This document shows, piece by piece, positions 34,941 through 37,599 of a stretch of 64,000 nt of DNA (position 1 is its first letter; each line of letters starts with the position of its first letter). The stretch comes from Coraliomargarita sp. GTDB taxonomy: Bacteria > Verrucomicrobiota > Verrucomicrobiia > Opitutales > Coraliomargaritaceae. The DNA lies in contig OZ244160.1 in assembly GCA_965216325.1 (NCBI GenBank), positions 608,001 to 672,000 of the forward strand, in the 5' to 3' direction. The position numbers and the translations under genes are program-made. A model generated the notes under the pieces. The model was given only the letters and a program-made list of their open reading frames with translations. It did no database searches and was not told the DNA's origin.

Positions 34941-36134
34941 TTATTCGCCAATGTCTACAGCCGAATAACGTGCCGCTTGAACTGGAGGAGCGGCCATTTG
35001 GTATTCGTTGACCTGTAGAATCTTAAAAGGAAACTGTATGGCGTCTTGCTCGCTGGCGGAGCCGGTCTTGGGGGCGTCTTCGCTACTAGAGCCTGGTGCA
35101 CTGCCGGGTGTCGCCCCCCCTGCGCTTGCTTCATCGCCGAAATTGGGCTCAACCATGGCTGTTAAGCTGAAGGGCACTTCACCGCGTTTAATCCGCACGG
35201 TGACACGTAATAGGCCGATCTCTACGCCTGTCATATCGCCTTCTGCGGACCCCGGGACAGAGGTGAGATAGGGCTCGTCCAGACCGTCGAAGAGGTAATC
35301 GCTTTGCCAGTTCCCATTCTCAGCAAGGGCGTCGAGAACTTCTTGTGGCGCGGAGTTCAAGTTGACGGCCCCGGAATTTTCCACGGATACCAAGTTGGAA
35401 AGCTGCTGAAATAATTCGTTGGGACGCCCGTCGTCATCGAAAAATTCGTCCTGCCAGACGCGTAGGAGGCGGAGTTCCTCGAGCGATTGGAGGGGTGCAT
35501 TCGCGGCTCGGTATTCGGGGCTGCCACGCAGATACTCTTCCGATTCCGCTCCGTTGAGCATTTGGTTGTCGTCCTCGTCGATCCAATCCTGCAGCACGCT
35601 GACCAATTCACGCGTCGTGCCAAAATCGAACTCGAGCTGCTCTTCCAAGACTTGCACCAGTAGGTCGCTGTTTTCGTTAACCGAGTTGATGGGGATTTTG
35701 CCGCCGATGTCTTCGATGCTAATATCGACCTCCCATCCGCTGGGGATTTGGATGCCCGCGTAGCTGATGGGATCGTTCCAGCCCTGTTCGCCTGCATAGA
35801 GCTTACCATCATCAATGAGCGCAACCTCTTGCACCGTCGCGAGGGCGACCTCCAGCATGCTGTAGGCAAAACTGCGGACCTCGGGCGGTTCGCTGAAAAT
35901 CGCGCGGTATTCCAGATCTTTCATCGCCTCCTGCATGATGCGAACGATCAGGAAGGAGAGCAGGAGAATGATGGCGAGGACCGCGACGAGCACACTGCCG
36001 CGCCGTGAAGTCGTTCGTAGACTGGTAGCGCAGCCGCGTCCTCGCGGCGCATCGATGGGCGAAGCTGAGGGGGTGCGGAGCGGGGACGCTCCTGCGCTAC
36101 CATTTATCTCGAAACTGTCCCTAACTTCACTCAT
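34941..36134 (-). CDS. gspK: Minor pseudopilin GspK with extended REP-derived leader
   Basis: [38 protein letters not shown]. Confidence 0.88.
36025..36100. repeat. REP doublet inside the gspK 5' coding region
   Basis: GTAGCGCAGCCGCGTCCTCGCGGCGC ... GCGGAGCGGGGACGCTCCTGCGCTAC. Confidence 0.85.
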
Positions 36135-37030
36135 TAAAATAAAAACGCACTTTGGGAGGGCACGGGGATCGCGATGACGCGTTCTTTTGTTTCACCTTCA
36201 TAGTCGAAGGTTAGTTTTAAGTAGCGTGGTAGCAGGTATTCTTCGTCGCCTTCACCTTCTTCGGGCTCGTCGGCTTCTTCCCACTTTTCAAAGGTTTCGT
36301 CCCAGTAAATATAGCTCAGTTTTTTGGCGATTGGGCTAATGAGCGTGCGGCGTAGATCACGCTCGTCTTCGACCTCTTCTTGGAGGTTGGAAGTCCAGAG
36401 TAGGCTGAGACCTTCGGATCGGTCGAAATGTAGATAGGTTTGCACTTTGGTAAAGGGCACTTCGTCGACTCCAACAAGCAGTGGGGGGGCGGTGGTCAGA
36501 CTAAAACTGAGCAGAGGTTCTTCGTAGCCTGCCGAACCGGGCAATTTCTCCCATTGAATCGGTGTTTCCGAGGTGCCGCTTAAGCCGCCGGCGTTCGTTT
36601 CTTTTTGCCCGTTGGCGGGAGTGCCCAATGCCAGAGATGGATTCTCGAGCTCGGGCCCCTCATTGCCCGCTTCAGATTCCGTGTTTTCACTTTGATCGCC
36701 TGCGCCGATCTCATAGCCGGCCATGGTGAAATTGGCCTTGAGGAATTCAGCGACTCCATCGACGTGGTCTTCAAAGAAATGGCGGTTTTGACGCTCGTGC
36801 CAGATGTTGCTGACTGATACGAGAAAGGTGGTTGCGCTTGCGAGGACAAAGCCGGCAACCGCAATCGCAAGCACGACTTCAATCAGGGTCATGCCACGGC
36901 GGCTTGCCTGATGGCTCGGAGTGGACAGTGGGGTCGCGCGAGTGCCTCCGGCACCGCATCCGGGCTGGTGGCGAAGCTTTCGTGGTGCGGAGCGGGGACG
37001 CTCCTGCGCTACCTGTTGAATCGCACTCAT
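36134..37030 (-). CDS. Minor pseudopilin GspJ-like with extended REP-derived leader
   Basis: RRG-MTLIEV prepilin motif; C-terminal LP.YLKL. Confidence 0.82.
36933..37012. repeat. REP doublet inside the gspJ-like 5' coding region
   Basis: GTCGCGCGAGTGCCTCCGGCACCGC ... GCGGAGCGGGGACGCTCCTGCGCTAC; 30 bp identical to the gspK copy. Confidence 0.85.
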
Positions 37031-37599
37031 TATCGGAAATCGCGGTTGCTCTCGAGCTCGTCCTTTTTATCGGCTAGCAGATCACTGCGTTCATCGGCTT
37101 CGGACCAAGTAGGACGTAGTAGGTAGAGCGTTTCGCTGTAGCTGTTGTCTTGGCCTTCTTCGGGCTCGCTAAATTGTATTCGGAGTTCGACTTGGAAGAG
37201 GTCGACGACGTTTGTGGCCTGGATTGTTGCCTCCCAAGAGGCTTCGCCATTACTGTAGGTTTCAATTCCGCCGCCGTCTTCGGCTGCCTCAAGCTCTGGT
37301 TCGAGGAGGAGTTGCATGCGCACGGTGCGGATATCGGCTTCGTAGTTGTCGTTACTGACGCCATGTTCTCGAGCAAGGAGAGCATTGGTGAAGGCTTGGC
37401 TGAGCACGACCGCTGCACCTGCAAAGATCGCGAGGGCGATCACGACTTCAATGAGTGTAAAGCCACGCGGTGAGGGTGGCTGGGGTGTTGGTTGTTGGGA
37501 GGTCGGGCTGGCGCGTCCCGCGCCGCATTGTGAATCTTGGCTAGGGATACGTGGTGCGCACCGAGGACGGTGCTGCGCTAGCTTTGGCGGCTCCATCAT
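37030..37599 (-). CDS. Minor pseudopilin GspI-like with extended REP-derived leader
   Basis: [13 protein letters not shown] prepilin motif. Confidence 0.82.
37502..37581. repeat. REP doublet inside the gspI-like 5' coding region
   Basis: GTCGGGCTGGCGCGTCCCGCGCCGC ... GCGCACCGAGGACGGTGCTGCGCTAG. Confidence 0.75.

Follow-up and report, generated by a model that had tools for sequence, protein, structure and literature searches.

A window of 64,000 nucleotides from Coraliomargarita sp., a marine bacterium of the Opitutia in the Verrucomicrobiota (the whole stretch of DNA analysed here, positions 608,001 to 672,000 of contig OZ244160.1) contains a minus-strand type II secretion cluster, gspG-H-I-J-K-(L/M)-D, in which three adjacent minor pseudopilin genes, gspI, gspJ and gspK, carry repetitive extragenic palindromic (REP) sequences within the leaders that precede the prepilin cleavage site. 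The repeats belong to a dispersed GTAG-headed family designated REP-A, and they are probably tolerated because the leaders that contain them are translated and later removed. The anatomy of the leaders, the repeat family, the pattern in relatives, the conservation of the reading frame and purifying selection on the mature parts of the proteins are observed, whereas readthrough of the REPs by ribosomes, leader cleavage and neutrality of the insertions are predicted. The leaders look more like a site at which mobile DNA is put up with than like a new machine. The genome (G000) is closed, with 3,064,510 bp and 52.9% G+C, and the organism seems to be an isolate, as the assembly is one contig and single-organism runs contain 0.97-0.98 of its sampled words; the only RNA runs contain 0.05-0.07 of them.

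The gspI, gspJ and gspK products each have exactly 46 codons, rich in Pro, Arg and Ala, ahead of the cleavage Gly, in agreement with the leaders of about 46 residues described in an earlier note made from the sequence of the window alone. Each leader begins at an ATG that overlaps the stop codon of the preceding gene, as that note also recorded (Table 1). Past codons 1-2, none of the three has another in-frame ATG, GTG or TTG before the Gly. The only in-frame starts of the gspI leader are its codons 1 and 2; the next in-frame ATG, GTG or TTG of that gene occurs at codon +7, within the conserved FTLIEV core, and no in-frame CTG or ATH codon was seen by eye between the gspI REP and the Gly. The earlier note was right about the interval between REP and Gly but missed an ATG at +1 of gspJ and a GTG at +2 of gspK. 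A Shine-Dalgarno-like AAGGAG or GAGGG lies ahead of the upstream gspI ATG in G000 and in two other species of the genus (G001 and G002), and when the sequences were compared no such sequence was found ahead of the putative downstream starts or the cleavage site. The sites read G/FTLIEVV in gspI and G/MTLIEVV in gspJ, in keeping with prepilins, which have Gly or Ala at -1 and then a hydrophobic N-terminal helix with Glu at +5, and G/SVLVAVL in gspK, which lacks Glu5 as GspK proteins characteristically do. In G000 and in all relatives read, position -1 is Gly or Ala and positions -2 to -4 retain basic residues. Ten other prepilin-like N-termini were found in G000 by motif search, gspG included; each has a start no more than 25 codons from the cleavage site, and none has a REP within the 200 nt upstream.

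An inverted REP pair is present in each leader, as the earlier note proposed. The pair in gspK is intact, with both arms recovered by nhmmer, and those in gspJ and gspI each consist of one recovered arm and one degenerate partner that scores below the threshold (nhmmer E 10). The partner arms still have stem, loop and CGCA tail, correctly spaced, and for this reason they were taken as decayed copies, the alternative that they are not REPs being set aside. The gspK and gspJ copies contain an identical 30-nt stretch, inside a 44-nt match of 91% identity, which is read in different frames in the two genes; this too had been noticed before and holds. The two pairs also have a spacer motif in common, which none of the 16 other REP-A pairs has. 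At 81-85 nt the leader pairs are shorter than those others (mostly 90-93 nt), and their spacers are GC-rich and stop-free. When folded as RNA, the gspK region reaches -58.3 kcal/mol (z -2.9), the gspJ region is weak (z -1.6) and the gspI region does no better than shuffles (z -0.5). No U-run lies 3' of the stems, and a role as intrinsic terminators was rejected on this account. There is no REP between gspG and gspH.

Table 1. Genes, leader-coding segments and REP-A copies in the window
Feature	Position	Strand	Remarks
Intergenic REP-A pair	7317..7402	.	ordinary extragenic copy, upstream of XerD-like recombinase gene
gspK, 397 aa	34941..36134	-	Pfam T2SSK_1st 1.1e-13; NCBIfam GspK 2.3e-20, below cut-off
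gspK leader-coding segment	35997..36134	-	ATG overlaps gspJ stop (TAATG at 36134); open in pilin frame only
Intact REP-A inverted pair (REPIN-like), gspK leader	36023..36103	.	nhmmer arms 36023-36054 (+) and 36069-36103 (-); 30 nt past gspJ stop
gspJ (by position), 298 aa	36134..37030	-	Pfam N_methyl; no match in NCBIfam search
gspJ leader-coding segment	36893..37030	-	ATG overlaps gspI stop (TAATG at 37030)
Degenerate partner arm, gspJ pair	36932..36961	+	head GGTCGCGCGAG; read from sequence
REP-A copy, gspJ leader	36980..37014	-	nhmmer E 7.3e-6; 15 nt past gspI stop
gspI-like minor pseudopilin, 189 aa	37030..37599	-	Pfam N_methyl; best NCBIfam match GspI 6.4e-05, below cut-off
gspI leader-coding segment	37462..37599	-	ATG overlaps gspH stop (ATGA, 37596-37599); open in pilin frame only
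Degenerate partner arm, gspI pair	37501..37530	+	head GGTCGGGCTG in place of GGTAGCGCAG; read from sequence
REP-A copy, gspI leader	37548..37580	-	nhmmer E 1.1e-4; about 15 nt past gspH stop
gspH-like minor pseudopilin	37596..38096	-	best NCBIfam match GspH 2.2e-06, below cut-off; 6-aa leader without REP
gspG, major pseudopilin	38101..38559	-	Pfam T2SSG 9.7e-28 and N_methyl; 18-aa leader MQTS...RKSG/FSLVE without REP

The REP-A consensus consists of the head GGTAGCGCAG, a 5-bp stem, a TC-rich loop of 2-5 nt, the return stem and CGCA. The stems vary with compensatory changes (GAGCG/CGCTC, CCGCG/CGCGG and CACCG/CGGTG). In the 3.06-Mb genome, an nhmmer profile built from 76 seeds, each with GTAGCGC and a perfect 5-bp stem, recovers 74 copies at E<=0.01, most of them simply the seeds used to make it, and 93 at E<=1; all copy numbers are lower bounds, 24 kb of the genome reading N. 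A strict REP-A pattern matches 16 times in G000, and its reversed form not at all. The copies group into 57 loci, of which 17 are inverted pairs of 70-95 nt (mostly 90-93 nt), and the intergenic pair of the same GTAGCGC subtype to which the earlier note had likened the leader copies is real (Table 1). A crude ORF (open reading frame) model (longest-ORF greedy, 2481 ORFs, no gene caller) leaves 43 of the 57 loci outside ORFs, 18 of these within 30 nt of a 3' end and five within 30 nt of a 5' end. Short palindromes (20-40 bp) with a GTAG head, dispersed, frequently paired in inverted orientation and mostly extragenic near 3' ends, are what is expected of GTAG-type REPs, and the tag in the REP-A head is that of the GTAG REP super-family already published (PMC3733652). 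Within the window we also note a weak REP-A-like head at 59146-59168 (nhmmer E 3.3), without a proper return stem, which is probably a decayed copy.

GspJ relatives were found in 36 of the 41 genomes searched, and 5' ends were read in the loci of 19 relatives and in L027-L029; a scan of genome contigs yielded three loci, one identical to that of G001, and a scan of metagenome contigs with GspJ yielded 593 pattern matches, among which no relative was confirmed. Three of the genomes (G001, G002 and G003) represent other species of the same GTDB genus. All three G000 leaders, of 46 residues each, contain REP-A. In G002 the gspI, gspJ and gspK leaders are 53, 58 and 53 residues long and all contain a second family, REP-B; in G001 the gspI and gspJ leaders are 10 and 15 residues long without repeat, and the gspK leader is 54 residues long with REP-B; and in G003 the leaders are 12, 8 and 22 residues long and there is no repeat. 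The comparison of 5' ends that the earlier note had suggested thus gives both of the outcomes it named, short REP-free leaders in one relative and a different REP family at the same places in others. In most other Coraliomargaritaceae genomes a start lies within about 5-25 codons of the cleavage site. Mature-protein identities make G000, G001 and G002 about equidistant (0.78-0.93) with G003 as outgroup, which calls for no fewer than five or six separate insertions or replacements. On the far side of the insertions the stop/start overlaps are conserved, and so are the first codons, which read ATGAGTGAA in the gspK genes of both G000 and G001.

REP-B is a different GTAG-headed palindrome (GTAGMGGAAGTGCGAAGCACTTTC), present as inverted pairs or singly, and is always read as VAEVRSTF or a close variant. 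Allowing up to three mismatches, it matches 16 times in G001, 15 in G002, five in G000 and not at all in G003, with no matches for a control pattern, and five of the 15 matches in G002 fall within the 1.6-kb pseudopilin cluster. The strict REP-A pattern, with 16 matches in G000, has 14 in G001, three in G002 and none in G003. A third family (GGAGGGCAACGCTCYGTCGTTGCC) forms an inverted pair at the gspJ-gspK junction of another genus (G021, L011 at about 900-1110), where the K frame runs open through it; matches to this family number 28 in G021 and 38 in G000, against none for the control. Copies of this third family are also evenly spaced, with a 110-nt period, at G000:179720-180295.

Two further kinds of repeat are seen in the leaders of relatives. 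The gspK leaders of G001, G002 and G003 (L002-L004) contain G-poor, C/A-rich runs, with CCACTCC-like or CGAACAACT-like units, downstream of the repeats, and such runs are also present in the REP-free gspK leader of G003. Because the CGAACAACT-like unit recurs in gspI, gspJ and gspK of G002, the mobile unit may exceed the hairpin, or leaders may exchange sequence. In two other genomes, G015 (L006) and G006 (L009), a tandem array of about five 7-nt TTCGACG-like units lies ahead of the gspJ cleavage site. As seven is not a multiple of three, gain or loss of units would alter the frame of the pilin relative to the upstream start, and the array could be a slip-strand on/off switch.

Each of the seven long leaders of the three genomes keeps its pilin frame open, and in five of the seven it is the only open frame; 138-nt windows centred on the 16 other REP-A pairs, used as a control, are open in 17 of 96 frames (about 18%). 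A strain about 2% divergent is represented by a 5003-nt metagenome contig that spans 35900-37700 with 36 differences and no gaps, and it keeps all three pairs. Of these differences 35 were listed, and the 30 in mature parts comprise 24 synonymous and six non-synonymous changes; the mature parts are under purifying selection and the pseudopilin genes are live. An open frame in every long leader, together with constraint on the mature parts of the host proteins, is the pattern of an in-frame insertion like those of the Rickettsia palindromic elements. Contigs from four DNA metagenome runs contain no joint that skips a REP pair, and the loose contig ends at 36071/36101, 36979-37019 and 37549-37585 are other repeat copies in those metagenomes and not variants of the locus.

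The scenario that we favour is one in which REP-A inserted as inverted pairs around codons 5-10 of gspI, gspJ and gspK. The REPs of this genome appear typically to land just past stop codons, and because each stop overlaps the next start in this operon, an insertion just after a stop would land inside the next gene. Such insertions would survive because the stretch that they hit encodes a cytoplasmic, positively charged leader that prepilin peptidase is predicted to remove. Only stop-free, frame-keeping versions of the REPs would persist, and translation from the coupled upstream ATG would run through them to give 46-residue leaders, which would be cut at the conserved Gly to leave normal mature pseudopilins. 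The preference of REP-A for 3' ends in G000 agrees with the preference of REPs for positions just downstream of ORFs that is described by Di Nocera, De Gregorio and Rocco (2013, PMC3733652). G000 also has a gene for an A24 prepilin peptidase (L032; Pfam A24_N_bact 3.3e-29, Peptidase_A24 6.1e-17).

Several observations weigh against this scenario or are neutral to it. Class III leaders usually have about 5-30 residues, and leaders of 46-58 residues exceed that range; at 46 residues those of G000 are not short, though their net charge by count is still positive (about +4 in gspI, +7 in gspJ and +2 in gspK). Leaderless products are conceivable for gspJ and gspK because of the ATG at +1 and the GTG at +2. 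In the divergent strain the leaders show no synonymous and five non-synonymous differences, a distribution that departs from that of the mature parts (Fisher p 0.0014); the amino-acid sequence of the leaders is evidently free to vary, which fits a translated but unconstrained spacer and untranslated DNA equally. The preference for 3' ends depends on the crude ORF model described above. A cognate REP-associated tyrosine transposase (RAYT), for which the earlier note had advised a search, was not found flanked by REP-A at the 12 loci checked of the 16 Y1_Tnp matches in G000; none has REP-A within 1.5 kb save for one copy 1.2 kb away. The cognate RAYT could have been lost, or could lie within the 24 kb that read N. 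Three of the Y1_Tnp matches, at G000:28229, 588851 and 605977 (the last about 2 kb ahead of the window), have identical scores, and none is flanked by REP-A. Finally, targeting or selection may be involved, as the occupation of three junctions in two lineages by different families exceeds the expectation for a simple neutral scatter of about 57 loci.

A broader proposal is that prepilin leaders are a general sink for palindromic mobile repeats across phyla and that their occupancy in the Coraliomargaritaceae is not passive, reflecting either junction-targeted insertion or selection for RNA structure or long leaders at gspI-J-K that would set tip-complex stoichiometry or the timing of processing. 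Three unrelated repeat families do occupy the same minor-pseudopilin junctions in different species of the family, and we regard the proposal as conceivable though rather doubtful.

A related explanation, which we think unlikely, is that the hairpins are kept for a role at the RNA level, shielding the upstream mRNA from 3' exonucleases or slowing ribosomes and so setting the ratio of major to minor (tip-complex) pseudopilins; the leader would then be merely the sole place for such a structure in an overlapping operon, and translation through the repeats would be compatible with it. The occupation of all three junctions past gspH in G000 and G002 by two families, with a third family at the J-K junction of G021, is what such a role would lead one to expect, as is the retention of all three pairs in the divergent strain. 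The REPs moreover lie 15-30 nt past the upstream stops, the usual place of REPs thought to act as RNA elements according to PMC3733652, and the strong fold of the gspK pair is likewise in favour. The gspJ region folds only weakly, however, and the gspI region no better than shuffles; the partner arms of both have decayed in a manner resembling neutral erosion, and the stems are not intrinsic terminators. The operon is kept in G001, which has no repeat in gspI and gspJ, and in G003, which has none at all, and no REP is present at gspG-gspH, where the step from major to minor expression would be expected.

It is improbable that the REP pairs are untranslated spacers, with starts downstream of them (the gspJ ATG at +1, the gspK GTG at +2 and a non-canonical codon in gspI) that would give leaderless or nearly leaderless pseudopilins, the open frames being accidental. 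The two downstream codons are present, the substitutions in the leaders show no coding constraint, and several ORFs of this genome are over-extended, for example the XerD-like gene at window position 7369; Di Nocera et al. (PMC3733652) likewise warn that many REPs at ORF N-termini are really extragenic. For gspI, however, such a start is hard to place, with no in-frame ATG, GTG or TTG until codon +7, inside the conserved core, and no CTG or ATH seen before the Gly, and the Shine-Dalgarno-like sequence lies ahead of its upstream ATG, with none ahead of the downstream starts. Accidental opening of seven leaders out of seven compares poorly with about 18% of frames over other pairs, and the conservation of positions -1 (Gly or Ala) and -2 to -4 (basic) is relevant only if this stretch is translated. 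The remaining explanation, that long leaders are the ancestral state, with a likeness to REPs that is due to chance or to local duplication among the three genes, is very unlikely and close to refuted: the spacer motif common to gspK and gspJ, unseen in 16 other pairs, may mean that one is a copy of the other, but the outgroup G003 and most members of the family have short leaders, the arms match a dispersed 74-copy family, the gspK and gspJ copies are read in different frames, and congeners carry an unrelated family at the same places.

Returning to REPs that are tolerated, translated and then removed, the leaders are not the only coding sequence that accommodates REP-A. Two otherwise intact dTDP-glucose 4,6-dehydratase (RfbB) paralogues contain REP-A in frame, with E 1.8e-141 to 1bxk and alignment gaps exactly at the repeat, and a gene for HrpA has REP-A at its N-terminus, in codons 9-20 (G000:838367-842326, L031), the homology to E. 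coli HrpA beginning directly past the repeat. REP-A is evidently tolerated in coding sequence in this genome, and the prepilin leader is one permissive site among several. The suggestion of the earlier note that cleavable leaders are a safe harbour for REPs is accordingly supported by the comparative and frame data, but not in the sense of a unique harbour.

Further details of these genes are as follows. The dehydratase paralogues lie at G000:1537310-1538512 (L030) and G000:1545320-1546579, and their in-frame REP-A is read as SGSAGASRAAPS. Both have a second insertion of about 35 residues, which the E. coli enzyme lacks and in which the string VGASVPHAR is found. This string occurs once more at the C-terminal end of the second paralogue, so that it may represent a further translated repeat. 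In the HrpA-like gene the next in-frame start would cut away conserved residues. A tyrosine-recombinase-like ORF of 442 aa (G000:2766109-2767434) also contains in-frame REP-A at about residues 96-108, between its N-terminal and recombinase-like parts, and the gene for the A24 prepilin peptidase has a REP-A copy directly ahead of its ATG, at G000:1422934-1422967.

The remainder of the cluster is that of a T2SS pseudopilin operon, with the order G-H-I-J-K and with a secretin and assembly genes close by. The gspH-like gene has a GTG start 4 nt past the gspG stop. Beyond the 46-residue leader the mature part is 143 aa in the gspI-like product, 252 aa in that of gspJ, where Met is the first mature residue, and 351 aa in that of gspK. 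The names gspI and gspJ rest largely on gene order, since the NCBIfam match is below cut-off for the former and there is none for the latter. Beyond gspK lie two assembly genes, the first with a weak, sub-cut-off match to PilN and the second with no Pfam match, followed by the secretin (Pfam Secretin/Secretin_N).

The case shows where selfish palindromic repeats can hide in a packed operon, namely in a coding stretch whose product is probably discarded. It is also a warning for annotation, in that very long prepilin leaders can be real and a REP at the 5' end of a gene need not be extragenic. A further prediction is a substrate range for prepilin peptidase that includes leaders of 46-58 residues and arbitrary sequence. 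Sister species differ in the repeat family at the same three junctions, and this turnover provides a natural system in which to ask if REP placement is targeted, selected or merely tolerated.

In REPIN/RAYT systems and in classical REP/BIME (bacterial interspersed mosaic element) arrangements, inverted REP pairs form long hairpins that lie just downstream of ORFs in polycistronic transcripts and are extragenic. The REP-A pairs of the leaders share this inverted-pair hairpin layout but lie in coding sequence. In-frame intragenic REPs have already been published (Opitutus, Rickettsia), and a full-text literature search found no description of REP-type repeats within the leaders of prepilins or pilins; a preprint on lanthipeptides and TnpA_REP concerns a different subject. 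The closest comparison is with the GTAG REPs of Di Nocera et al. (PMC3733652), a paper that reports REPs inside genes, with the highest number in Opitutus terrae, another Verrucomicrobium, includes HrpA and an epimerase/dehydratase among the hosts, and regards the N-terminal cases as probably extragenic. A search of its supplementary files by term found no pilin, prepilin or methylation entry. Those REPs and REP-A are alike in being short GTAG-headed palindromes, often inverted dimers, most of which lie outside genes near 3' ends while a minority are in frame within genes, and the HrpA and dehydratase hosts of REP-A are of the same kinds. The present case differs in that a class III leader, predicted to be cleaved, is the host sequence, in that three adjacent genes are affected, and in that other families occupy the same sites in sister species.

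The Rickettsia palindromic elements, as presented in PMC10969869, are likewise palindromic repeats that lie in frame in protein-coding genes and are tolerated at permissive places. They are 100-150 bp long and mostly lie within the mature protein, whereas the repeats described here are pairs of REPs of about 30 bp and the peptide that they encode is predicted to be removed. The likeness would be one of working alike, and REP-A would not be a member of that group.

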